A DNA stretch of 64,000 nt, from NCBI GenBank assembly GCA_044229475.1, contig JBGASW010000002.1, positions 743,517 through 807,516 on the forward strand, written 5' to 3'. A program made the translations under genes and the position numbers. Every line of letters starts with the position of its first letter. The stretch's first letter is position 1. This document shows positions 5,801 to 47,309 of the stretch, one piece after another. The notes beneath the pieces were generated by a model. The model was not told where the DNA came from. It saw nothing but the letters and a program-made list of their open reading frames with translations, and did not search any database. The DNA comes from Thermoanaerobaculia bacterium. GTDB lineage: Bacteria > Acidobacteriota > Thermoanaerobaculia > UBA5066.

Positions 5801-5809
5801 CGCGGCGCC

Positions 5810-6778
5810 ATGCGCCGCAAGCCGCGCGCCCTTCTCTTTCTCGTCGCCGCACTGCTCATCGCGTCGTCTCCGGCACGGCCGGAGGAGATTTCTGCTTCGG
5901 AAATCCGCGTGTCGGCCGGGACGACCCGCTCCGGCGACCTCGTGGCTCTCGGAAGGAGGATTCTCTTAGAAGGTGAATTGGAAGGAAGCGTGGTGCTCGT
6001 CGGAGGCGGTGAGGCCGTGGTGACGGGTCGCATTCGTCGTGACCTCGTTCTCCTCGGTGCGAACGCCACGATTCGCCGCGGAGCCCGCATCGACGGCGAC
6101 GTCCTCTCCCTCGGCGGCTCTCTCACCTTCGAAGAAAATCCCCCGGTCTCTTCGGACGTCTCGCCTTTTCGCGGGCCGTCCCATCCGCAGGTCGGCGGGC
6201 GCGTTCGCACGGTCTCCGCCCTCGAGGCCGCCGTCGCCACGGAGCTGCAGACGTCCCCCGCCGCATCGCTCGCGCAGTGGCCGTTCCTCCTCTCGTTCCG
6301 CCTCGCGCTCCTCTTCGCGTGGCTCGTCGTCTCGCTCCTCCTCCTCGTTCTCGCGCCGCGGGCGATCGGCGAGTCCGCAGCGGGAGTCGCCGGGCGGAGT
6401 GCGTTCCTCGGCGCGCTCGGTGCAACCGCCGTCCTGACCGCCGCGCTCGCCGGCGCGCTCGCGCTGTCGCTCCTGCCGTCGCGCGTTTCGCTCGCGGCCG
6501 GCGCGGTCGTCCTCCTGGCGCTCGTCGCGGCGAAGGTCTGGGGGCTCACGGCGCTCTTCCTCGCCCTGGGCCGCCGCCTGAACGCGAGCGCCCGGCGCGG
6601 CAGCGCGCTCTTCGGCGATCCGGCCGCGGCTGCACTCGGCCTCCTCGCTCTCGGCGCCGCATCGCTCGTTCCGGTCGTGGGTCCCCTCGTCTGGGGCGCG
6701 GCGTCGCTCGTCGGGATCGGCGTTTCCCTCGCCGACGCCGCCTCCCGGGCCCCGCGGGTCGCGCTCGCGCCCTCCTGA
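5810..6778 (+). CDS. Bactofilin-like (polymer-forming beta-helix repeat) domain fused to a multi-pass membrane region
   Basis: Signal/TM N-terminus. Repeats [64 protein letters not shown] resemble bactofilin/CcmA repeats. C-terminal half is hydrophobic. Confidence 0.5.
5958..6140. repeat. Convergent motif pair inside the bactofilin-like gene (GGATTCTCTTAGAAGGTG 5958-5975; CCTTCGAAGAAAATC 6126-6140). Nearby 5885-5905 holds palindrome GATTTC-N7-GAAATC
   Basis: Read in-frame as [10 protein letters not shown] and LTFEENPP. Confidence 0.6.
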
Positions 6779-6824: not shown

Positions 6825-7706
6825 ATGAGTCTCGAAAAGATCGGCGTCGTCGGCGCCGGCCAGATGGGAGCGGGAATCGCGCACGTCGCGGCGCTCGCCG
6901 GCAAGAGCGTGGTCCTCCTCGACGTCTCCGACGACGCCGTGCAGAAGGGCCTGAAGGCGATCGGGAAGAACCTCGGCCGGCAGGTCGAGAAGGGCAAGGT
7001 CACGGCGGACACCCGCGACGCCGCGCTCGCGCGCATCTCTCCCACGACGGACCTGGGGCGTTTCGCCGACGCGGACCTCGTCGTCGAGGCCGTCGTCGAG
7101 AACGAGGACGTCAAGAAGGACCTCTTCGGGAAGCTCGACGTCCTCGTGAAGGCCGGCGGCATCCTCGCCTCCAACACCTCGTCGATCTCGATCACGCGTC
7201 TCGCGGCCTCGACGAAGCGGCCGGAGCGCTTCATCGGAATGCACTTCATGAACCCGGTGCCCGTCATGACGCTCGTCGAGGTCATCCGGGGGATCGCGAC
7301 GTCCGACGAGACGACGGCCTCCGTGGTCGCCCTCGCCGAGGCGATGGGGAAGACACCTCTCCTCTGCCGCGACTTCCCGGGCTTCGTCTCGAACCGCGTC
7401 CTGATGCCGATGCTCAACGAGGCGTTCTTCGTCCTCCACGAGGGCATCGCGACGCCCGAGGCCGTGGACGGGATCATGAAGCTCGGCATGAACCACCCGA
7501 TGGGCCCGCTCACGCTCGCCGACTTCATCGGCCTCGACACGTGCCTCGCGATCCTCCGCGTCCTGCACGGCGGCCTCGGCGACGACAAGTACCGCCCGTG
7601 CCCGCTCCTCGTGCAGATGGTCGACGCGGGCTGGCTCGGGAAGAAGGCCGGCCGAGGCTTCTATCGTTACGACGCCCCCGGTGGGAATCGGATTGAGATT
7701 TCTTAG
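6825..7706 (+). CDS. 3-hydroxybutyryl-CoA / 3-hydroxyacyl-CoA dehydrogenase
   Basis: N-terminal [13 protein letters not shown] Rossmann fold. Conserved NTSSISIT and [14 protein letters not shown] motifs. RBS AGGAG upstream. The TAG stop lies inside an AT-rich motif copy. Confidence 0.9.
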
Positions 7707-7751
7707 AAGGGAAGAGGGGCGAGCGGCGGGAGCTCCTCGGGTGGTCGTCCC

Positions 7752-15263: not shown

Positions 15264-16891
15264 TCTCCGGCGACGTCCTCGGGGAGCGCGCGCGGCTGTC
15301 GCCGGAGAAGACCGCGCTCGTCGAGGTCGCGACGGGACGGCGCTTCACCTATGCGGAGCTGGATGCGCGCGCGAGAGGCGCGGCACGGACGCTGACCGAG
15401 GGGCTCGGCCTGAAAAAGGGCGACCGCATGGCCCTCCTCGCGGGCAATTGCGTGGAGTTCCTCGACGTCTTCTTCGCGTGCGGGAAGAACGGCGTCGTCC
15501 TCGTCCCGCTCAACACGCGCCAGACGGCGGGAGAGCTGATTGGCGTCCTCGAGGACGCAGAGCCGAAAGCGCTGATCTATGGAGCCGCGTTCGAAGAGAC
15601 CGTTGAAGATTTGCTTAGAAAGGTAAGAGGGGTAACCCCGGTTCTTCTCGACGCGCCGGCGCAGCGTGGCGCGAGGGCGGCGGGCGCGCCGAACGCCCGC
15701 ACCACCTTCAAGGAAATCTTCTCTTCTCCTCCAGCGGCGGCTCCTGCCGCCGCTGCAGAAGTCCCCTCTCCCGGCCCGGAAGATCTCTACTGCCTCCTCT
15801 ACACCTCCGGCACCACGGGCAAGCCGAAGGGCGTGATGGTGCCGCACCGGATGGTCGCGTGGAACGCGGTGAACACCGTCGTGTCGTGGCAGCTGCGCGA
15901 GGACGACGTGTCGCCGATCTACACGCCGCTGTACCACGCGGGCGGCCTCGGCGCGTTCCTGACGCCGGTCTTCGCGATCGGCGGGACGATCGTCCTCCAC
16001 GCCGGCTTCGACGCCGCGGAGGTCCTCGCGACGATCGGGAAGGAGCGCTGCACGGTGGTCCTCGGCGTGCCGACGATCTTCCGGATGCTCCAGGAGCACC
16101 CGTCGTGGGCGTCGGCCGACTTCTCCTCGGTCCGCTACTTCATCAGCGGTGGTGCGCCGCTGCCGCTCGACATCATCGAGACGTGGCACCGGCGCGGCGC
16201 GAACTTCAAGCAGGGCTACGGCCTCACCGAAGTCGGCGTGAACTGCTTCGCGATGAGCGTCGAGGAGTCCGTGCGGAAGGCCGGCTCGATCGGCAGGCCG
16301 ATGATGTTCACGGAGGCGAAGCTGACCGGCGAGGACGGGCGGGAGGTCCCGGTGGGCGAGGTCGGCGAGCTCCTCCTCAGGGGCCCGCACGTCTGCCGGG
16401 GCTACTTCCGGAATCCCGAGGCGACGGCGGCGTCGCTCGATGCCGAGGGCTGGTTCCACACGGGCGACCTCGCGAAGAAGGACGAGGACGGGTTCTTCAC
16501 GATCGCGGGCCGCAAGAAGGACATGCTGATCTCGGGCGGCGTGAACGTGTACCCGGCCGAGATCGAGGGTGTCCTCTTCCAGCATCCGCGGGTGAAGGAC
16601 GTCGCGGTCGTCGGCGTGCCCGACGAGAAGTGGGGCGAGGTCGGCGTGGCCTTCGTCGTTCGGAGGGAAGAAGGGAGAGAGGAGAAGGGAGAAGAGAAGA
16701 TTTCTTTGAAGGTAATAGGAGAGATGGCCGAACTGGCGGCCTTTGTCGAGGCGCGCCTCGCGAAGTACAAGGTTCCCCGGGAGTTCATCTTCGTCGCGAG
16801 CCTGCCCCGGACCCCCTATGGGAAAGTCGTGAAGGGTGACCTCCGCTCTCTTTACCTTTCAAAGAAATCTTCAACGAATGAAGCCCGATGA
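15260..16891 (+). CDS. Acyl-CoA synthetase / fatty-acyl-AMP ligase (AMP-binding family)
   Basis: GTG overlaps upstream stop (GTGA). AMP-binding motif YTSGTTGKPKGV, plus YGLTE and the C-terminal KYKVPREFIFVASLPRTPYGKV. Confidence 0.9.
   Translation: MISGDVLGERARLSPEKTALVEVATGRRFTYAELDARARGAARTLTEGLGLKKGDRMALLAGNCVEFLDVFFACGKNGVVLVPLNTRQTAGELIGVLEDAEPKALIYGAAFEETVEDLLRKVRGVTPVLLDAPAQRGARAAGAPNARTTFKEIFSSPPAAAPAAAAEVPSPGPEDLYCLLYTSGTTGKPKGVMVPHRMVAWNAVNTVVSWQLREDDVSPIYTPLYHAGGLGAFLTPVFAIGGTIVLHAGFDAAEVLATIGKERCTVVLGVPTIFRMLQEHPSWASADFSSVRYFISGGAPLPLDIIETWHRRGANFKQGYGLTEVGVNCFAMSVEESVRKAGSIGRPMMFTEAKLTGEDGREVPVGEVGELLLRGPHVCRGYFRNPEATAASLDAEGWFHTGDLAKKDEDGFFTIAGRKKDMLISGGVNVYPAEIEGVLFQHPRVKDVAVVGVPDEKWGEVGVAFVVRREEGREEKGEEKISLKVIGEMAELAAFVEARLAKYKVPREFIFVASLPRTPYGKVVKGDLRSLYLSKKSSTNEAR
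15605..15721. repeat. Convergent motif pair in acyl-CoA synthetase N-terminus (GAAGATTTGCTTAGAAAGG 15605-15623; CCTTCAAGGAAATCTTC 15705-15721)
   Basis: 17/19-nt near-reverse-complementary. Encodes DLLRKV and TFKEIFSS. Confidence 0.65.
16696..16882. repeat. Convergent motif pair at acyl-CoA synthetase C-terminus (GAAGATTTCTTTGAAGGTA 16696-16714; CCTTTCAAAGAAATCTTC 16865-16882), near-perfect 18-nt inverted repeat
   Basis: Arms differ by one inserted base. Encodes EKISLKVIGE and an unusual C-terminal tail LYLSKKSSTNEAR. Confidence 0.7.
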
Positions 16892-21639: not shown

Positions 21640-23421
21640 ATGCGCTGGTCCCAGTCGTTTCTCGTGACCCTCCGGGAGGTCCCCGGCGACGCCGAGGTGG
21701 TCTCCCATCAGCTCCTCTACCGCGCGGGCTTCATCCAGAAGCTCGCCGCCGGCATCTACTCGTACACGCCGTTCGGCTTTCGCTCGCTCAGGAAGATGAT
21801 CGAGATCGTGCGCGAGGAGATGGACGCCACGGGCGCCCAGGAAGTGGACCTCCCGATCCTCCAGCCGAAGGAGCTGTGGGTCGAGTCGGGCCGCTGGGAC
21901 CGCTACCAGGCCGAGGGAATCCTCTTCCACCTCAAGGACCGCAAGGACGGCGAGTTCGCGCTCGCGCCGACCGCCGAGGAGGCCGTGACGGACATGGTCC
22001 GGCGCTCCGTGACGTCCTGGCGGCAGCTCCCGTTCAACCTGTACCAGATCCGCACGAAGTTCCGCGACGAGATCCGGCCGCGCTTCGGCCTCCTGCGCGG
22101 CCGCGAGTTCCTCATGAAGGACGCGTATTCCTTCGACCTCGACCAGAAGGGCCTCGACGCGCACTACGAGAAGATGGACGCGGCGTACCGGAAGATCTTC
22201 GACCGCTGCGGCCTCGAGTTCGCGGTCGTGCAGGCGGACTCGGGCGCGATCGGCGGCTCGGCTTCGGAAGAGTTCATGGTCGTCGCCGACACCGGCGAGG
22301 ACGCGCTCGTGTTCGCGGAAGCCGGCGATTACGGCGCGAACATCGAGAAGGCCGTGACAGCGCCGCTCCCCGAGCCGTGGGCGGGGGAGGACGCGAAGCC
22401 GTTCCAGAAGGCGGGCGCCACGACCCCGGGCATTACGACTACGGACGGCCAGGCCAAACATCTCGCGACCGAACCGGCGCGCATCGTGAACACGATGCTC
22501 TACGAAGCCGTTGGACCGGACGGCAAGGCACGGCTCGTCGCGGTTCTCATCCGCGGCGATCTCGCCATCAACGAGGTCAAGCTTCCCAAGGCGCTCGGCG
22601 CGCTTCACGTGAAGCTCGCTTCGGAGGAGATTCTTCGAAAGGTCACAGGGACGCGCCCCGGATTCGTCGGGCCGCTCGGTCTTCAACCATTCGAAGAAAA
22701 TCCGATCTCCCTCTTCGTCGACCGGTCCCTGGAGCACGGAGTCAACGTATGGTGCGGGGCAAACCTCGACGACCATCATCATGCTCAGGTGTCCATCAAG
22801 CGTGACGTCATGTCCGATCCGGCTTTTGCCGGCGTCGTCGAGGTCGCGACCGCCCGCGACGGCGATCCCTCGCCGGCGCCGAAGGGCGGCGCGCTGCGCA
22901 TCAAGCGCGGCATCGAGGTCGGGCACATCTTCAAGCTCGGCACGAAGTACTCCGAGGCCATGAAGTGCGAGGTCGCCGACCAGGCGCAGAAGATGGTGCC
23001 GCTCGCGATGGGCTGCTACGGGCTCGGCCTCGGCCGCACGATCGCGGCCGCCATCGAGCAGCACCACGACGAGCACGGCATCGTGTGGCCCGTCCCGCTC
23101 GCGCCGTACGCGTGCGTCGTCGCGGCCCTCCAGCGCGACGCCGACGTCCTCGCCGCCGCCGACAAGCTCTACGGGGACCTGAAGGCCGCCGGCGTCGAGG
23201 TGTTTTACGACGACCGCGACGAGCGGCCGGGCGTGAAGTTCAAGGACATCGACCTCATCGGCTTCCCCGTGCGGGTCGTCGTCGGCGGGAAGTCGCTCGC
23301 GAAGGGCGTCGTCGAGGTCTCGACGCGGCGCGAGAAGCAGGCGCAGGGGATCGCCCTCGCGGACGTCGTCGGCGTCGTGAAGAAGACGCTCGCCGCGGGC
23401 GCGAAGACTCTGGCCGTGTAG
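21640..23421 (+). CDS. proS: Proline--tRNA ligase (bacterial type with editing domain)
   Basis: 593 aa. Class II aaRS motifs (FRDEIRPRFGLLRGREFLMKDAYSF; GIEVGHIFKLGTKYSE; MGCYGLGLGR). C-terminal anticodon-binding domain. Confidence 0.95.
   Translation: MRWSQSFLVTLREVPGDAEVVSHQLLYRAGFIQKLAAGIYSYTPFGFRSLRKMIEIVREEMDATGAQEVDLPILQPKELWVESGRWDRYQAEGILFHLKDRKDGEFALAPTAEEAVTDMVRRSVTSWRQLPFNLYQIRTKFRDEIRPRFGLLRGREFLMKDAYSFDLDQKGLDAHYEKMDAAYRKIFDRCGLEFAVVQADSGAIGGSASEEFMVVADTGEDALVFAEAGDYGANIEKAVTAPLPEPWAGEDAKPFQKAGATTPGITTTDGQAKHLATEPARIVNTMLYEAVGPDGKARLVAVLIRGDLAINEVKLPKALGALHVKLASEEILRKVTGTRPGFVGPLGLQPFEENPISLFVDRSLEHGVNVWCGANLDDHHHAQVSIKRDVMSDPAFAGVVEVATARDGDPSPAPKGGALRIKRGIEVGHIFKLGTKYSEAMKCEVADQAQKMVPLAMGCYGLGLGRTIAAAIEQHHDEHGIVWPVPLAPYACVVAALQRDADVLAAADKLYGDLKAAGVEVFYDDRDERPGVKFKDIDLIGFPVRVVVGGKSLAKGVVEVSTRREKQAQGIALADVVGVVKKTLAAGAKTLAV
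22627..22702. repeat. Convergent motif pair inside proS (GAGATTCTTCGAAAGGTC 22627-22644; CCATTCGAAGAAAATC 22687-22702)
   Basis: Encodes EEILRKVTG and QPFEENPIS. The intervening sequence is native-looking ProS (GPGxxGPL). Confidence 0.65.
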
Positions 23422-28953: not shown

Positions 28954-29053
28954 CGCGCGGCCGGAGGGCCGCGCGCCCGGGAAGCTCCTCATCGTCGTTC
29001 CCTCGCGGGCCGAGGGCGCGAGAGTCGGCGATCTTCCGGGCGATGTTCGAAGA

Positions 29054-29211
29054 GAGATTTCTTTGAAGGAGAATACGGCAGCCGCTGCCAGCGGCGCCGC
29101 GCCTGTGATGCCTCGGGTGCACGTCGACGTTCTCGTCGTTCTGGACGGCCCCGACGCCGATGCCGAGGCCCGTCTCAAAGCGGACGGCGTGGATTACCTT
29201 TCTAAGAAATC
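29054..29211. repeat. Convergent motif pair bracketing the GT2 start codon (GAGATTTCTTTGAAGG 29054-29069 upstream; CCTTTCTAAGAAATC 29197-29211 inside the CDS)
   Basis: 14/15-nt reverse complementary, about 150 bp apart, start codon 29108 in between. Confidence 0.65.
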
Positions 29212-30175
29212 TGCCGGTCCGGCGAAGGGAGACGCACTGGCGTTTCTCGCCGAGCAAATGGACGACCGGCTGGATGCCTACGATTTCATCCTCGTCTTCG
29301 ACGCCGACATGCGTTTGCCCGAGGGCTTCTTCCGCGACCTCCGCGTGCCCGGGGGGACGGAGGCGTTCCAGCTGCCGGTCCGTCCTTCGGGCGTCCCGGC
29401 GCCGGGCGCGCCGCGCGTCGAGGCGCTGTCGCTGGCCGAGGCTCGCCTCGACGACCTCGCACGCGACGCGGCGGGCCTTCCCGTGCGCCTGCGCGGCAAG
29501 GCGATGGGCTTTTCGCCGCGGGCGTTCCGCCTCGGCCCGGCGGCCGCGACGCGCACGACCGCCGAGGACTCCGAGGCGACGCTCGCGCTCCTCGCCAAGG
29601 GAATCGTCGTGCGCGCGCTGGACGGGCCAATGGCCTTCGACGAGCCGTCGTCCGACGCGGGCGCGATGGGGCGCTCCCGGGCGCGCTGGTTCGGCGGGCA
29701 CATGAAGCTGCTTTTCTCGGGTCTTGGAGATCTCGTTCGGAGCTTCGTGAGGCGGCCGGTCGGGACTCTCGTGCTGGCGGCGGATCTCTGGCTCCGTCCG
29801 AGGATCTTTCTGCTTGGGACCCTCGCGTTTCTTGCAGGCGCCTCGGATCTGGCGATGGTGGTTTTTTCTTCGAGTGGCGCGTGGTCTGCCTCGGCGCATG
29901 CAGCCGGCGGCGCCGCGGCGGCCGGGGGCGCGACTGGGGCGGCCATGCCCGTCGCGCTCCTGGTCTGCCTCCTGCTCCTTTCACTCGAAGGGAAGGCGGC
30001 CTTGCTCTTCGAGTGGCTTTCTCTCGCCGCGGTTCGCCATCGCATCGGATTCCCGGCGGAATGTCCCCCTGTTGCTCTCGCCGATCTCTCCGACTCTCTT
30101 CTCGTGTGGGCGGGCGCCGTCGTCCGCGGCGTGCTCGCACCGTCGCGGTGGCATCGCGCGAGGCCCGAGGCATGA
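29108..30175 (+). CDS. Putative family-2 glycosyltransferase with C-terminal membrane helices
   Basis: ATG 29108. VDVLVVLDG...DFILVFDADMRLPEGFF (DxD-like). Hydrophobic C-terminus. Several AT-rich motif copies inside. Confidence 0.55.
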   Translation: MPRVHVDVLVVLDGPDADAEARLKADGVDYLSKKSAGPAKGDALAFLAEQMDDRLDAYDFILVFDADMRLPEGFFRDLRVPGGTEAFQLPVRPSGVPAPGAPRVEALSLAEARLDDLARDAAGLPVRLRGKAMGFSPRAFRLGPAAATRTTAEDSEATLALLAKGIVVRALDGPMAFDEPSSDAGAMGRSRARWFGGHMKLLFSGLGDLVRSFVRRPVGTLVLAADLWLRPRIFLLGTLAFLAGASDLAMVVFSSSGAWSASAHAAGGAAAAGGATGAAMPVALLVCLLLLSLEGKAALLFEWLSLAAVRHRIGFPAECPPVALADLSDSLLVWAGAVVRGVLAPSRWHRARPEA

Positions 30176-35207: not shown

Positions 35208-36354
35208 GCCGGGCGCGGTGCGCGCGCCACGCGGCGAGCACCTTCAGGAGCAGGCCGCCGTGGGCGACACGGGAGATCTGGCTCGGGGAGAGAGCACAGA
35301 GACGGGACGCTGCGCGGCGCCCGCGACGCGGACGAGAGATGGAGGACGGGGGAAGAAGACTTTCTTTGAAGGTGAAGAGGGAAATCCGATAGCGCCTCTC
35401 GAGTACGGAATGGCGAAGCACCGCCACCGGCTCGATTGCGCTGACGTCACGCCCGGCGAGACGCTTCCACCACCTTCTAAGAGAATTTGCAGACCCGTCC
35501 CCGGCGCGCACGCGCAGCATCGGAGGGACGAGGTGGCCGGCGACCATCTCCTGATCTTCAACCAGCAGAATCTTCTTTCCTCTCTCCACGATCGCGCCGA
35601 CGAGATGAATCGTCCTGGGCGAAACGCGGGCGGCCGCCCGCGGAAACGCCTCCGGCGTCCCGCCCGCGGCCGCGCGGCAGGAGGAGCGGAGCGGGCACGC
35701 GCCGCAGCGCGGCGCGCGCGGCGTGCAGACGAGCGCTCCAATCTCCATGAGGGCCTGGTTGAAGTCGCCCGGATTCCGCGCCGGCACGAGAGGCCGGGCG
35801 ACCGCCCGGACCCTCGCGAGCGTCGCGGACGTCTTCGGGTCGAGCTTGAGCGCCTTGAGACGGCAGAGGACGCGCACGACGTTGCCGTCCACCACGGGCT
35901 CGGGGATGCCGTATGCGATCGACGCGACCGCGGCGGCCGTGTACGCGCCCACGCCGGGGAGCGCACGCCAGCCTTCGAGCGTGCGCGGAAACGCGCCCGC
36001 CGCGGCGACGGCCCTCGCGGCGCGGTGGAGGTTCCGGGCGCGCGCGTAGTACCCGAGGCCGCTCCACTCGGCGAGGACGTCGCACTCCTTCGCGCGGGCG
36101 AGCGCCTCGACGGTCGGGAAGCGCGCGCGGAAGCGTTCCCAGCGGGGCACGACGACGTCGAGCGTCGTCTGCTGCGCCATGATCTCGGAGAGCCAGATCG
36201 CGTACGGGTCGCGCGTGGAGCGCCACGGCAGGCTGCGCCGCGCCCGGCGATACCAGCGCGCGAGCCGGCGCGTCAGGTCGGCCGGGTCGTCGATCACGGG
36301 CGGGAGTCTAGACTCGGTGCGTGGACGTCGACTGGGAAGGCCTGACGGTCGCAT
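35161..36354 (-). CDS. mutY: A/G-specific adenine DNA glycosylase
   Basis: HhH-GPD region WSGLGYYARARNL. 4Fe-4S Cys cluster CTPRAPRCGACPLRSSC. C-terminal NUDIX-like domain. Alternative GTG start at 36297. Confidence 0.85.
   Translation of the reverse strand: MRPSGLPSRRPRTESRLPPVIDDPADLTRRLARWYRRARRSLPWRSTRDPYAIWLSEIMAQQTTLDVVVPRWERFRARFPTVEALARAKECDVLAEWSGLGYYARARNLHRAARAVAAAGAFPRTLEGWRALPGVGAYTAAAVASIAYGIPEPVVDGNVVRVLCRLKALKLDPKTSATLARVRAVARPLVPARNPGDFNQALMEIGALVCTPRAPRCGACPLRSSCRAAAGGTPEAFPRAAARVSPRTIHLVGAIVERGKKILLVEDQEMVAGHLVPPMLRVRAGDGSANSLRRWWKRLAGRDVSAIEPVAVLRHSVLERRYRISLFTFKESLLPPSSISRPRRGRRAASRLCALSPSQISRVAHGGLLLKVLAAWRAHRARLRREPEESVPAERRS
35355..35488. repeat. Convergent motif pair in mutY 3' region (GAAGACTTTCTTTGAAGGTG 35355-35374; CCTTCTAAGAGAATTT 35474-35488). 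A further related copy lies at 35568-35595
   Basis: On the mutY coding strand they read FTFKESLL and ANSLRRWW. Confidence 0.6.
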
Positions 36355-43656: not shown

Positions 43657-44241
43657 GTGGCGGCGAGCGGTTCCTTCTACGGGCTCCTGACGCGGCGGGT
43701 GGGCGAGGCCCGCCTTGCGGCCGCGCTCCCGCACCTGCCGAGGGGCGGCGGCGGCAGAGTCCTGGACGTGGGCTGCGGCCTGACGGATCTCGCGGCGCGG
43801 ATCCCCGACTACACCGGCGCAGACCGCAATCCCGACGTGCTCGCCGAACAGAGAGGGAGATTTCCGAAGAGAGATTTCTATGAATGGGACATCGTTCGGG
43901 GCGCGGCTCCGGCGGCGCTCTCGGCGAAAGCACCATTCGGGGGAATTCTTCTTCTGGCCGTCCTCGAACACGTTCAGGAACCCGCTTCGGTGCTCGGACG
44001 TCTCGCGCCGCTTCTCGCGCCCGGAGGCCGGTTGATCGCGACGACGCCTCATCCGAGCGGCCGCTGGCCGCTGGAGGCGGGCGCGGCGCTCGGCCTGCTC
44101 TCCTCCCACGCCCATGACGAGCACGAGACGCTCCTCGGCCGCGAGTCCCTGGAATCGGCGGGCCGCGCTTCGGGGCTGTCTCTCGTTCTCTACCGGAGGT
44201 TCCTCCTCGGCATGAACCAGCTCGCGGTCTACACACGGTGA
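43657..44241 (+). CDS. Class I SAM-dependent methyltransferase
   Basis: GTG start. Motif I VLDVGCGLTDLA. Post-I acidic region. LLLAVLEHV. Confidence 0.7.
   Translation: MAASGSFYGLLTRRVGEARLAAALPHLPRGGGGRVLDVGCGLTDLAARIPDYTGADRNPDVLAEQRGRFPKRDFYEWDIVRGAAPAALSAKAPFGGILLLAVLEHVQEPASVLGRLAPLLAPGGRLIATTPHPSGRWPLEAGAALGLLSSHAHDEHETLLGRESLESAGRASGLSLVLYRRFLLGMNQLAVYTR
43855..43951. repeat. Tandem forward copies (GGGAGATTTCCGAAGAG 43855-43871; GAGATTTCTATGAATGG 43871-43887) plus reverse copy CCATTCGGGGGAATTCTTC 43933-43951 in methyltransferase gene
   Basis: Encodes RGRFPKRDFYEWD and KAPFGGILL. Confidence 0.55.
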
Positions 44242-47200
44242 CGGCCGGCCCCCGCCTCGTCCGCCGCGGCGCGGACGCGATCCATGTCGTGAACGCCCGC
44301 ACGCACAACCTCAGGGACGTCACGTGCACGATCCCCGTGGGGGCGCTCACCGTCGTGACGGGCCCTTCGGGTTCCGGCAAGTCTTCGCTCGCGTTCGACA
44401 CGCTCTACGCCGAGGGCCAGCGTCGCTTCGTCGAGTCCATGTCCACGTACGCGCGCCAGTACCTCGAGCGGCTCGAACGTCCGGACGTGGACGAGATCAC
44501 GCACGTCCTCCCGGCGATCGCGATCGAGCAGAGGGCGCCCGCGCGCTCGGCGCGCTCGACGATCGGGTCGGCCACCGAGATCCACGACGTCCTGCGCCTC
44601 CTCTTCTCGGCCGCGGGCACGCTGCGCTGCCCGGACGACGGCAGCCCCGTGCGCCGCGAGACGGCCGAGAGCGTCCGGGCGGCTCTTCTCGAAGAGTTCG
44701 GCGAGGGCGCGCGCCTCCTCGTCGTCGCGCCTCGCAGAGTGACGTCGTTCGCGGCGGAGAGCGCGGAGTGGAGGAGGCTTGGCTTCTACCGGTACGTCGG
44801 AGCTGCGGGCGACGTTCTGGAAATAGAAGAGAAGATTTCTTCGAGTGAAAGAGAGAGGGAGAGCAGCTCGCCGCCCCGCAGGGCCGTAGCGCGTTCGAGC
44901 GCGGCGCGTCGTCCCTCTTCACCCTTCAAAGAGATCCCCTCTTCCTCCCTCTTCCCTCTGCTCATCGGCCGCCACGTACTGCGGGCTGACGATCCGGAAA
45001 TCCTCTCTTCACTTTCAACGGCCTTCGACGCCGCAGACGGATCGCTTCTCGTCTTGAAGTCCGGAGAGGGTCTTTCCTCCGCCCGCACGTTCCGCCGCGG
45101 CCTGTCGTGCAACGCGTGCGGCCGGGCGTTCGCGGACCCGGTGCCCGCGCTCTTCTCGTTCAACTCGCCGCGCGGGGCCTGCGAGACGTGCCAGGGGTTC
45201 GGGCGGATCGTCGGCATCGACGCGGCGCGCGTCATTCCCGACCCGCGCAAGACGCTGCGCGAGCGTCCGATCGCACCGTTCAACTCGCCCTCGTACGAGA
45301 GCGCGTACGACGACCTCAAGGCGGCGTCGCGCCGCCTCAAGCTGCGGTGGGACGTTCCCTGGAACGAGCTGACGCAGCGGGAGAGGGACGCCGTCTGGAC
45401 GCGCTCCGGAGATTGGTACGGCGTCGAGGGCCTCTTCGAGTACCTCGAGAAGAAGCGCTACAAGGTTCAGGTTCGCGTCATGCTCGCGCGCTACCGCGGC
45501 TACTCGACGTGCCCCGAGTGCCGCGGCGCGCGGCTGAGGCCCGAGGCGCTCGCCGTGACGGTCGGCGGAAAGACGATCGCCGAGGTCTGCGACCTGACGC
45601 TCGACGGATTCGTGGCGTTTCTCGGGGCGCTCCCGCTGCGCGAAGCCGAGCGCGAGCGGGCAGCTTCCCTCGTCGAGGAGCTGGCGCGGCGCGCGGGGAC
45701 GCTCGTCGAGATCGGCCTCGGCTACCTGACGCTCGCGCGCACGATGCGCACGCTGTCGGGCGGTGAGGCTCAGCGCGTCCAGCTCGGCTCCGCGATCGGC
45801 AACGCGCTGACCGGAACGCTCTACGTCCTCGACGAGCCGACGGTGGGCCTGCATCCGCGGGACACGCGGCGGCTCCTCGCGGTCCTCGAGAGGCTCGCGG
45901 CCGCGGGCAACGCGGTCGTGGCCGTCGAGCACGACACGGACGTCATCCGTGCGGCCGACCACGTCATCGACCTCGGCCCGGGGGCCGGCGCGCTCGGCGG
46001 GCGGCTCGTCTTCGAAGGAACGCCGGAGGAGCTGACCGAGGCGGACACCGCGACGGGAAGGTCGTTGAAGAAGGAGAAAGAGATACTTCTTGCTTCGGAC
46101 GCGGCGGGATACGGGCCGACTGTGGCGACGGACGCCGTGGCTGCGGAGACGGTGGGAGCCTTCGGCACTTTCTTTGAAGGTGGAGTGAGTGCAGGCGCGC
46201 CCGAGAGGCCGGAGGGCCGCATTCGCCCCGCCGCCCATTCACCTTCTAAGGAAAACCATCGTGACGATTCGATTCGCGTGCCACTCGAATCGATACAGGT
46301 CGTGGGTGCGCGAGCAAATAATCTCCAGAACCTCTCGGTCTCGTTTCCCTTGCGGCGGCTGGTGGCGGTGTCCGGGGTGTCGGGGTCGGGGAAATCCTCC
46401 CTCGTCGTCGACGTTCTCGCCGCGGGCGCGCGGCAGCGCATGGGCAAGGGCCTCCTGCCGGGCATCGACGCGGTGGGGGAGCACGATGGCATCTTCGGGC
46501 TCGAGCACGTTTCGGACGTCATCCTCGTCGACCAGTCGCCGCCCGGGCGCTCCTCGCGCTCGAACCCGGCGACCGTGACGAAGGCTTGGGACGAGATCCG
46601 GACGCTCCTCGCCCGGACGCCCGCCGCGAAGGCGCGCGGCCTCGAGAAGGGCGCCTTCAGCTTCAACGCGGCGGGCGGGCGGTGCGAGAGGTGCGAGGGC
46701 GCCGGCGTCGTGACCGTGGACATGCAGTTCCTCGCGGACGTGACGATCGTCTGCGACGTCTGCGACGGGCGCCGCTTCAAACCGGAGGTCCTCGAGGTGC
46801 GCCTGAGGGGCCGGAACGTCGACGAACTCCTCGCGACGACCGTCGACGAGGCGCGCCTCCTCTTCGCGGACGCGCCCGCCATCGCGAGCCGCCTCCAGCC
46901 GCTCGCCGACGCGGGGCTCGGGTACCTCACGCTCGGCCAGTCGACGGCGACGCTCTCGGGCGGAGAGGCGCAGCGGCTGAAGATCGCGACGTTCCTCCGG
47001 GGGGCCGAGGCCCCGAAGGCGCCGGTCCTGTTCGTTTTCGACGAGCCGACGACCGGCCTGGCGCCGTCCGACGTCGACGTCCTCCTCGCCGTGTTCCGCC
47101 GGCTCCTCGCGGCCGGCCATTCGATCGTCGCGGTCGAGCACAACACGGCCTTTCTCGCGCGCGCCGACCACCTGATCGAGCTGGGCCCGGACGGCGGCCC

Positions 47201-47309
47201 GGACGGCGGCCGAGTCGTCTTCGAGGGCGAGCCGGCGGCGCTCGCGGCTCGCGGCGGGACGCCGACCGCCCGAGCGCTGAAAGGACGGGTACAATTTCCG
47301 CCACGGTGA
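44238..47309 (+). CDS. uvrA: Excinuclease ABC subunit A (UvrA family) with expanded low-complexity loop and inter-domain linker
   Basis: Two ABC ATPase modules ([33 protein letters not shown]; [11 protein letters not shown]), zinc modules (CNACG...CETCQG; CERCEG...CDVCDG) and signature LSGGEAQR x2. Linker about 90 aa versus about 25 aa in E. coli UvrA. Confidence 0.85.
44820..44960. repeat. TIR-like element in uvrA: left arm GAAATAGAAGAGAAGATTTCTTCGAGTGAAAGAGAGAGGGAGAG, right arm CCTCTTCACCCTTCAAAGAGATCCCCTCTTCCTCCCTCTTCC, flanking a GC-rich core
   Basis: Arms are imperfect inverted repeats of roughly 35 nt. The segment encodes Ser/Arg/Pro-rich low-complexity peptide [40 protein letters not shown]. 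Confidence 0.6.
46074..46256. repeat. Three motif copies in the expanded uvrA inter-domain linker (GAGAAAGAGATACTTCTTGCTTCGG 46074-46098; CACTTTCTTTGAAGGTGG 46166-46183; CCTTCTAAGGAAAAC 46243-46256)
   Basis: Encode [19 protein letters not shown] and SPSKENHRD. The linker is about 65 aa longer than in E. coli UvrA. Confidence 0.6.

Follow-up and report, generated by a model that had tools for sequence, protein, structure and literature searches.

Paired inverted arms within coding sequences of a Thermoanaerobaculia sub-clade: a dispersed repeat family with an in-frame copy in uvrA

The Rickettsia palindromic elements (RPEs) form whole-length families of ~150 bp (~100-150 bp), each with a conserved peptide, and are found in Alphaproteobacteria that are AT-rich and live as obligate intracellular bacteria. 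REPINs lie outside genes; their spacer is fixed for each family (e.g. 71 or 110 bp) and replicates with the unit, and they are associated with a RAYT gene. [quoted passage not shown] RPEs are palindromic, lie in frame in unrelated housekeeping genes, are translated as added peptide that is compatible with the fold of the host protein and vary among orthologs, and MITEs, including the intragenic ERIC, are small, have inverted terminal arms and occasionally reside in frame in open reading frames (ORFs) (PMC10969869). REP sequences occur mainly as doublets in inverted orientation, which can fold into a hairpin and are favoured over singlets (PMC3116915), and REPIN-RAYT systems are described as persisting for long periods by vertical descent. 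In coding sequence, the USS/DUS motif is found in several frames and at residues that tolerate it (PMC2817400). The motif HIP1 (GCGATCGC) of cyanobacteria is reported to be strongly over-represented and to have no known function (PMC5861425). The present analysis concerns a segment at positions 44820-44960 of a 64-kb stretch of Thermoanaerobaculia DNA (contig JBGASW010000002.1; hereafter the window), which lies in frame within the gene uvrA. The segment is one copy of a dispersed repeat family that is specific to a sub-clade of the Thermoanaerobaculia.

The family is defined by an AT-rich arm of ~31 nt with the consensus GAAGAGAAGATTTCTTYGAAGGTGAAGAGGG. Sixteen copies of the arm were found in the window by fuzzy search and alignment, and a profile built from these 16 copies recovered them at E values of ~1e-5 to 1e-2 in 64 kb. 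The copies form at least eight pairs, in each of which a forward arm is followed by a reverse arm, with starts at about 5952, 15601, 16693, 22623, 29049, 35353, 44828 and 46166. All eight lie within open frames of unrelated ordinary genes. Arms were nearly always arranged as convergent inverted pairs, within coding DNA or bordering on it: over 519 kb of related DNA, adjacent arms no more than 300 nt apart were convergent in 30 cases, tandem in one case and divergent in none, at spacings of 4-244 nt. Matches to the profile were confined to Thermoanaerobaculia loci, and ~70 control loci of 30-66% GC gave no match. The exact arm 18-mer TTCTTYGAAGGTGAAGAG was matched in metagenomes mainly on contigs of 68-72% GC. 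Five matches in viral contigs of 31-60% GC were taken as chance. Two family motifs had been named in a preliminary description of the segment, and both proved to be over-represented in the window, one with 3 matches where 0.08 were expected and the other with 9 where the expectation was 0.81.

The host gene (44238..47309, + strand) is an intact ORF of 1023 aa. Its product was identified as UvrA, the excinuclease ABC subunit A, by the Pfam domains ABC_tran and UvrA_DNA-bind and by a full-length match to the structure 3pih (E 1e-220). Orthologs annotated as UvrA, with identities of up to 88%, were present in metagenome-assembled genomes (MAGs) of Thermoanaerobaculia (Acidobacteriota). Neither this UvrA nor its close orthologs matched the Pfam UvrB-interaction model PF17760, a model that did match more distant UvrA-like proteins of ~1770 aa in the same search.

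The sequence at 44820-44960 is as it had been described: it lies in frame in the UvrA ORF, whose translation contains the 40-aa peptide quoted for it. With a GC content of 70.8% over the window, the arms are conspicuous, the left arm having a GC fraction of 0.52-0.53 and the core one of 0.75. The left (forward) arm GAAGAGAAGATTTCTTCGAGTGAAAGAGAGAGG occupies 44825..44857 on the + strand and encodes 11 aa; the arm profile was matched in nhmmer searches at 44828-44850. It is followed by the GC-rich filler or core (44858..44912, + strand, 19 aa) and by the right (reverse) arm GAAGAGGGGATCTCTTTGAAGGGTGAAGAGGG on the - strand at 44913..44945 (nhmmer match 44942-44913), which encodes 10 aa on the + strand. 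Agreement with the family consensus, counted by hand from alignments, was found at ~27/31 positions of the left arm and ~28/32 positions of the right arm. Both arms had been described as purine-rich. On the + strand this holds for the left arm (AT skew up to +0.43); the right one is rich in pyrimidines there (GC skew -0.66) and purine-rich only on the - strand. The arms are indeed inverted around a GC-rich core, but their length is nearer 31-34 nt than the ~35 nt first proposed. When the left arm was aligned, gaps allowed, to the right arm in reverse complement, the alignment extended over ~31-34 nt before the GC-rich filler was reached; 7 of 2000 composition shuffles did as well. Ungapped inverted repeats were formed by 44826-44844 with 44926-44944 (19 nt, 79%) and by 44820-44839 with 44997-45016 (20 nt, 85%). 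The pyrimidine-rich outer flank of the right arm (CCTCCCTCTTCCCTCTG; 44946..44962, + strand), which encodes SSLFPL, complements the purine-rich flank of the left arm, and in the minimum free energy (MFE) fold it was paired with 44826-44840.

Further arms or arm-like stretches are present in the same gene. R0 (44995..45020, - strand) is a weak arm-like stretch at a native position, encoding PEILSSLST, which is confidently modelled as a helix. Its reverse complement TTGAAAGTGAAGAGAGGATTTCC agrees with the inner two thirds of the arm consensus. The GC content at third codon positions (GC3) of R0 was 0.41, the sixth lowest of 909 windows, and its rare AT-ending codons were retained in 10 orthologs. 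A second convergent pair was detected with nhmmer at 46166..46261, with the forward arm at 46166-46189 (TFFEGGV) and the reverse arm at 46233-46261 (HSPSKEN). This pair sits in the linker between the two UvrA halves, and its presence or absence varies among orthologs. Upstream of it, an AT-rich patch at 46066-46100 (KEKEILLAS) resembles a forward arm and contains a small internal hairpin (GAAGAAG...CTTCTT); across ten orthologs this patch had the lowest GC3 in the whole of uvrA (0.23-0.39).

Conservation within the family resides in the arms. When the fillers of different copies were compared by eye, no evident similarity was found, and the filler of the uvrA copy was homologous only to the cores of the UvrA orthologs P0001, P0009 and P0007. 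Likewise, comparison of orthologs showed conserved arms and variable fillers. Arms were read in each of the three frames and occurred on either strand, and the encoded peptides differed by frame. The central base of the arm motif TTHGAA shifts in such a way that TAG or TGA is avoided in the frame used. A programmed frameshift at CTT TGA within the arm was ruled out, since the frames that are open in the host ORFs are other ones and stops are avoided at the central base. In uvrA, GAA ATT TCT TCG and the downstream CTCTCTTCACTTTC consist of rare AT-ending codons that were kept in ten orthologs of 67-88% identity. Arms or arm-like patches were among the windows of lowest GC3 across the uvrA orthologs, the mean of the gene being 0.876, and the highest synonymous codon identity in the gene was found at aa 638-646, at the forward arm of the second pair. 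Partner arms were no more alike than non-partners (permutation p 0.55-0.76), so that there was no sign of local copying of arms or of selection for pair-specific complementarity. Local template switching, by which one arm would be copied into its partner, was ruled out on this ground.

The acyl-CoA synthetase gene of the window carries two pairs, and arms could be followed there at native positions. Both arms of pair 1 (15601..15725) lie at such positions (EDLLRKVRG and TFKEIFSS). Pair 2 (16693..16874) has a forward arm that is a 39-nt insertion and a core that is the native catalytic hairpin (YKVP..GK). In alignment with homologs from the PDB, the forward arm appeared as an insert of ~12 aa and the reverse arm fell in the C-terminal tail, while the hairpin YKVP...GK enclosed by the arms at 16693 and 16844 aligned residue by residue. 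Origin of an arm in place was seen in a series of the same codons from syntenic loci. The outgroup L211 reads ACC GTC CGG GCC TTG AGG CAA CTC GTT, the intermediate L212 reads ACC GCG AGA GAT CTG CTT CGA AAG TGC, and the window reads ACC GTT GAA GAT TTG CTT AGA AAG GTA AGA GGG. The reverse arms of this gene showed a similar progression across the codon series. Arms were also gained or lost singly, as the reverse arm YLSKK was present in acyl-CoA synthetase orthologs that had no forward arm. Since arms bracket native coding sequence and arise without insertion, the family does not behave like a simple mobile cassette.

The history of the uvrA copy was followed in a protein alignment of 42 UvrA orthologs and in a DNA comparison of the window with nine related loci. 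The contig scan for UvrA had returned mostly canonical UvrA of Bacteroidota, and the useful loci were L004-L011. The loop was a hot spot of length variation across the 42 orthologs, and every length variant was in frame, as expected if the segment is translated. The short form of the loop reads EI-SSSERKGKG-AFPLL, the long forms end in SFKEI or SFEEN, and several intermediate forms were without one of the arms. A check of orthologs had been proposed in the preliminary description, and the segment was found to be missing from close orthologs; the peptide was not carried by distant ones. In the DNA alignment an 84-nt block (28 codons; 44866..44949, + strand), comprising filler and right arm, was absent in L001 (P0002) and L003 (P0005). 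No target-site duplication was detected at the borders of this block when they were compared with the empty sites of these two loci. P0099, a partial UvrA of 100% identity, is simply cut by a contig end. In a neighbour-joining tree, long forms were distributed across the crown clade (at least 80% identity) with short forms nested among them.

A fuller state of the uvrA loop was observed in L004, a locus from a MAG of 3.67 Mb, where an arm at the native position, GAGATTTCTTCGAGTGAAGG, is followed by a clean unit consisting of GAAGAGAAGATTTCTTCGAAGGTGAAGAGGG, filler and CTCTTCCTCATTCGAAGAAAATCCTCCCTCTTC. The older native-position arm (F0, 'EISSSE') and the forward arm of the inserted unit (F1) are adjacent in L004 and in P0009. 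The left arm of the window looks like a fusion of F0 and F1; its 'EEKI' prefix would be accounted for in this way. A simple insertion, as first envisaged, did not hold, because the left arm stands on an older arm that was found in all orthologs. Judged from the alignments and the tree, the simplest history would be a single gain followed by six or more independent deletions. The old arm at the native loop position would predate the inserted unit; the crown-group ancestor would then have gained a unit of ~120 nt, arm, filler and arm, beside it. In the window copy the two forward arms would have fused, and in sister lineages the unit would have been deleted wholly or in part.

The segment has no counterpart in canonical UvrA, as had been claimed: query aa 202-240 were aligned opposite 10 residues of T. 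maritima UvrA (3pih), the insert falling between 3pih residues 192 and 203. The linker insert that holds the second pair (aa 617-677) was opposite four residues. In the AlphaFold model, aa 199-236 and 616-682 had a predicted local distance difference test (pLDDT) score of <50 and no secondary structure, and both stretches lie between confident strands. The structural model therefore agrees with the surface loop that had been anticipated. By alignment to solved UvrA and by the UvrA domain map, we take loop 1 to lie in the region of the UvrB-binding domain and loop 2 in the linker between the halves. The insert is predicted to be a disordered surface loop of ~39 aa that is compatible with the fold. 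It would be tolerated in that the unit keeps the frame, is without stop codon and would be translated as such a loop.

The reading that we put forward, at a probability of roughly 0.45 and thus tentatively, is that the arms are a paired recognition motif of REPIN/RPE-like type which acts at the level of the nucleic acid, that the peptide is a passenger, and that the family spreads arm by arm. The two facing arms would be recognition sites for a putative trans-acting nucleic-acid-binding factor, as in REPINs and RAYT, and this fits the observation that arms are individually held to the consensus and face each other. Transposon ends follow the same logic; what differs here is that the sites reside in ORFs and that the intervening DNA would be of no relevance. 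Arms would be spread or renewed singly, either through short insertions or where compatible native sequence is converted, and no transposition of a fixed cassette would be involved. The family and its polarity, the insertions and deletions, the nucleotide conservation regardless of frame and the position in a disordered loop are shown by the data, whereas the existence of the binding factor and the mode of spread are what we infer from these patterns.

Several points weigh against this reading. The conservation of arms could in places be due to selection on the protein, e.g. in the EILSSLS helix. Fold z-scores of the pairs were modest, from -0.6 to -3.7, with -1.5 to -1.9 for the uvrA copy, so that a stable hairpin is putative. 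Pfam searches with 30 ORFs of the window revealed no transposase, recombinase or reverse transcriptase, and RAYT/IS200 probes, a weak test, gave no match in 0.6 Mb of high-GC loci. Some of the arm calls are weak, notably R0, with a profile score of just 1.8 bits, and a single arm at 43872, which was rejected as a family member because it is probably native methyltransferase sequence (RDFYEWDI) kept in relatives. The count of 30 convergent pairs includes orthologs and paralogs (e.g. the kinase family), and the number of independent loci is estimated at ~18. The data base consisted of one 64-kb window and 10-kb flanks of relatives.

There is also a substantial, though minor, chance that the arms are a functional cis-signal used genome-wide and not selfish DNA, i.e. 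a polar, paired site of ~31 nt that would be read on DNA or RNA by a host factor. A signal kept by selection in any frame would explain the origin of arms in place, the rare codons held for long periods and the constant facing of the arms. If this were true, it would amount to a novel type of paired signal within genes, for which no counterpart is described.

A classic mobile element of the MITE or Rickettsia type, in which a cassette of arm, core and arm is moved by a transposase, the arms being its terminal inverted repeats and the rest decaying, was considered unlikely. The arms are terminal, inverted and strictly convergent, the unit of ~120 nt in uvrA of L004 is discrete, copies are present in some orthologs and absent from others, and in other orthologs both uvrA loops are occupied by another palindromic family, which is GC-rich and has inverted ends of 21 nt. 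Such an element is, however, at odds with the lack of target-site duplications, with cores that are unrelated between copies at spacings of 4-244 nt, and with the finding that several of these cores are native and essential coding sequence. Nor would a cassette account for arms that appear at native positions with the length unchanged and are gained or lost singly, for partner arms that are no more alike than non-partners, or for synonymous sites in arms that are conserved and not decaying. No transposase was found in the window by Pfam or in the weak scan with RAYT/IS200 probes.

Structure at the RNA level, by which the arms would pair in the mRNA as a long-range stem kept by selection for stability, RNase processing or ribosome pausing, was judged quite unlikely. 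The forward arm was paired with the reverse arm in the MFE structure of every pair folded, and two pairs and the L004 unit had z-scores of -2.5 to -3.7. The forward arm also contains AGGTGA, read as Shine-Dalgarno-like, and the reverse arm contains its complement. Divergent arms would, however, pair equally well, and yet 0/31 neighbouring pairs were divergent. Complementarity was not specific to partners, and the central base, which follows the reading frame, was often mismatched between them. Most z-scores were weak and no Rfam family was matched: searches of the whole window at the gathering threshold, and of the region at E values of up to 10, returned only weak miRNA-like hairpin noise.

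A drive like that of uptake signals, in which the arm would be preferred by a biased process (DNA uptake, repair or conversion) and would accumulate by point changes wherever it is tolerated, is improbable. It would be in line with arms that emerge in place by synonymous or conservative changes, in all three frames and at poorly constrained positions, and uptake sequences do act in this way in coding regions (PMC2817400). Yet the arm is long and degenerate compared with the short exact cores of uptake sequences, its convergent pairing at distances of tens to hundreds of nucleotides is without USS/DUS counterpart, and some arms are clear insertions of 36-120 nt.

Very improbable is a protein-level or local origin, i.e. 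a low-complexity Ser/Arg/Glu loop that arose by replication slippage in simple runs of purines and pyrimidines, perhaps as a flexible or phosphorylatable linker, with no family element behind it. The loop is of low complexity, its length varies widely among orthologs, and runs of poly-Ser and poly-Glu/Lys lie beside many arms; but this explanation is largely refuted by the occurrence of the same ~31-nt motif in unrelated genes, in three frames, on both strands, with strict polarity and at profile E values of about 1e-4 to 1e-5 in 64 kb, and by peptides that differ between frames. An intragenic inverton, in which a recombinase would flip the segment enclosed by the arms, was rejected: inverted repeats do flank short intragenic segments, and the reverse strand of the uvrA segment is open, but neither the 42 UvrA orthologs nor the uvrA sequences of the window and its nine related loci included an allele with an inverted core, no recombinase gene was found in the window, and many enclosed segments (the acyl-CoA synthetase hairpin, ProRS, the kinase core) are essential native sequence whose inversion would destroy the protein.

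The other pairs of the window were located as follows. In an ORF for an unnamed protein (5801-6778), a pair extends over 5952..6147, with the forward arm at 5952-5981 and the reverse arm at 6119-6147. The prolyl-tRNA synthetase (ProRS) gene, identified by Pfam, carries a pair at 22623..22716, of which the reverse arm is a weak nhmmer match; the arms flank TGTRPGFVGPLGL, which we take to be native ProRS sequence. The pair in a family-2 glycosyltransferase gene (29049..29218) is conserved in the metagenomic ortholog L117, and the pair in an HhH-GPD DNA glycosylase gene on the - strand (35353..35492) has its counterpart at the corresponding site of L001-L003 and L154. At 7693..7720 (+ strand), the 3' end of a gene for a 3-hydroxyacyl-CoA dehydrogenase carries a single forward arm. 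The TAG stop of the dehydrogenase is part of the central TTAGAA of this arm, whose inner half is purine-rich and is situated just upstream of an ORF for a TPR protein, the next one in order.

Arms at the edge of genes and around native domains were also observed in related loci. In L153 a lone forward arm directly precedes the ATG of a FAD-binding gene, where AAGGGGG could serve as a ribosome-binding site, and in L119 a full unit of arm, filler and arm takes the place of this lone arm upstream of the same gene. Eight loci (L088, L089, L103, L109, L121, L122, L160 and L163) encode Ser/Thr kinases with an arm pair 84 nt apart. The pair (LPEEFFEGEER ... YSFEEIPSSSS) brackets the native kinase core and is followed by poly-Ser runs of variable length. 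We presume that LPEEFFEGEER...YSFEEI is derived, with no change of length, from the usual kinase sequence LPEAFASDPER...IYGLEE. In the window, a separate ORF for an alpha/beta hydrolase begins at 16882, after the acyl-CoA synthetase gene. Some orthologs of the acyl-CoA synthetase have an alpha/beta hydrolase domain fused to it, which is missing from the shorter ones (orthologs P0130, P0152, P0156, P0159 and P0201; 16844-16891 in the window). In three fusions that were aligned, P0130, P0156 and P0159, the reverse arm with its poly-Ser tail (SYLSKKSSSSSS...GVLAHRVDGEG) spans the junction, and the tail of the arm thus acts as a fusion linker.

Repeats other than the arm family were encountered at the same loops of uvrA. 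One of them is the other palindromic in-frame family, which is GC-rich. Its inverted ends of 21 nt are CCGAATGGCCGATGTCAAGGG ... CCCTTGACATCGGACATTCGG, and the encoded peptide is SRMADVKG...PLTSDIREE. This family occupies loop 1 in L010 (~5990-6075), P0020 and P0034, and in P0034 also loop 2; it is not present in the 64-kb window. A third repeated peptide, AASAAAAY(E/Q)K / AASAAPNIRKN, was seen in loop 1 of P0018, P0020 and P0034 and in loop 2 of P0049 and P0054, which suggests another small repeat family using the same uvrA hot spots. Outside uvrA, a 69-nt in-frame indel at ~50421 distinguishes the near-identical strains L204 and L205. It lies in the gene of a 1020-aa protein with no Pfam match, is flanked by direct repeats of GTCGACGT and is unrelated to the arm family.

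Literature searches yielded no description of such repeats in Thermoanaerobaculia. Where they reside in genes for core proteins, among them UvrA, ProRS and acyl-CoA synthetase, arms give rise to loops that are prone to indels. They also supply stop codons and gene-fusion linkers, and they will confuse alignment-based annotation of Thermoanaerobaculia. The conservation of synonymous sites, the overlay on native codons, the convergence of the arms and the independence of partners point either to a mode of spread that has not been described or to a genome-wide signal not known before.

Compared with the described systems, the family shares some traits with each. Like REPINs, the arms are inverted doublets (30 convergent pairs) conserved across a clade, but the Thermoanaerobaculia pairs are intragenic and in frame, and their spacing of 4-244 nt is often filled by native coding sequence. 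Terminal inverted repeats, small size and residence in frame are shared with MITEs, whereas no target-site duplication, size class, common core or parent IS was found in the material examined. As with USS/DUS, an arm motif is laid over coding sequence in several frames and arises in place; it differs in being ~31 nt long, degenerate and obligatorily paired, with fixed polarity. HIP1 is likewise a lineage-specific, hyper-abundant motif, but it is an 8-nt perfect palindrome that occurs singly, in contrast to long asymmetric arms in convergent pairs.

The closest likeness claimed at the outset, that to RPEs, holds in so far as the segment is an in-frame palindromic insertion of family type: copies lie in frame without stop in unrelated genes, and the uvrA copy falls at a surface-loop position and varies in presence among orthologs. 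By neither descent nor definition is it an RPE. Copies have only the ~31-nt arms in common, with no whole-length consensus and no conserved peptide, their fillers are unrelated or native, and all three frames are used; by this description the family is set apart from RPEs, and its host is an Acidobacteriota MAG of 71% GC. In-frame palindromic repeats have so far been regarded as peculiar to Rickettsia. A comparable family with a different mechanism in free-living, GC-rich Acidobacteriota would mean that protein loops built from repeats at the nucleic-acid level are far more widespread.

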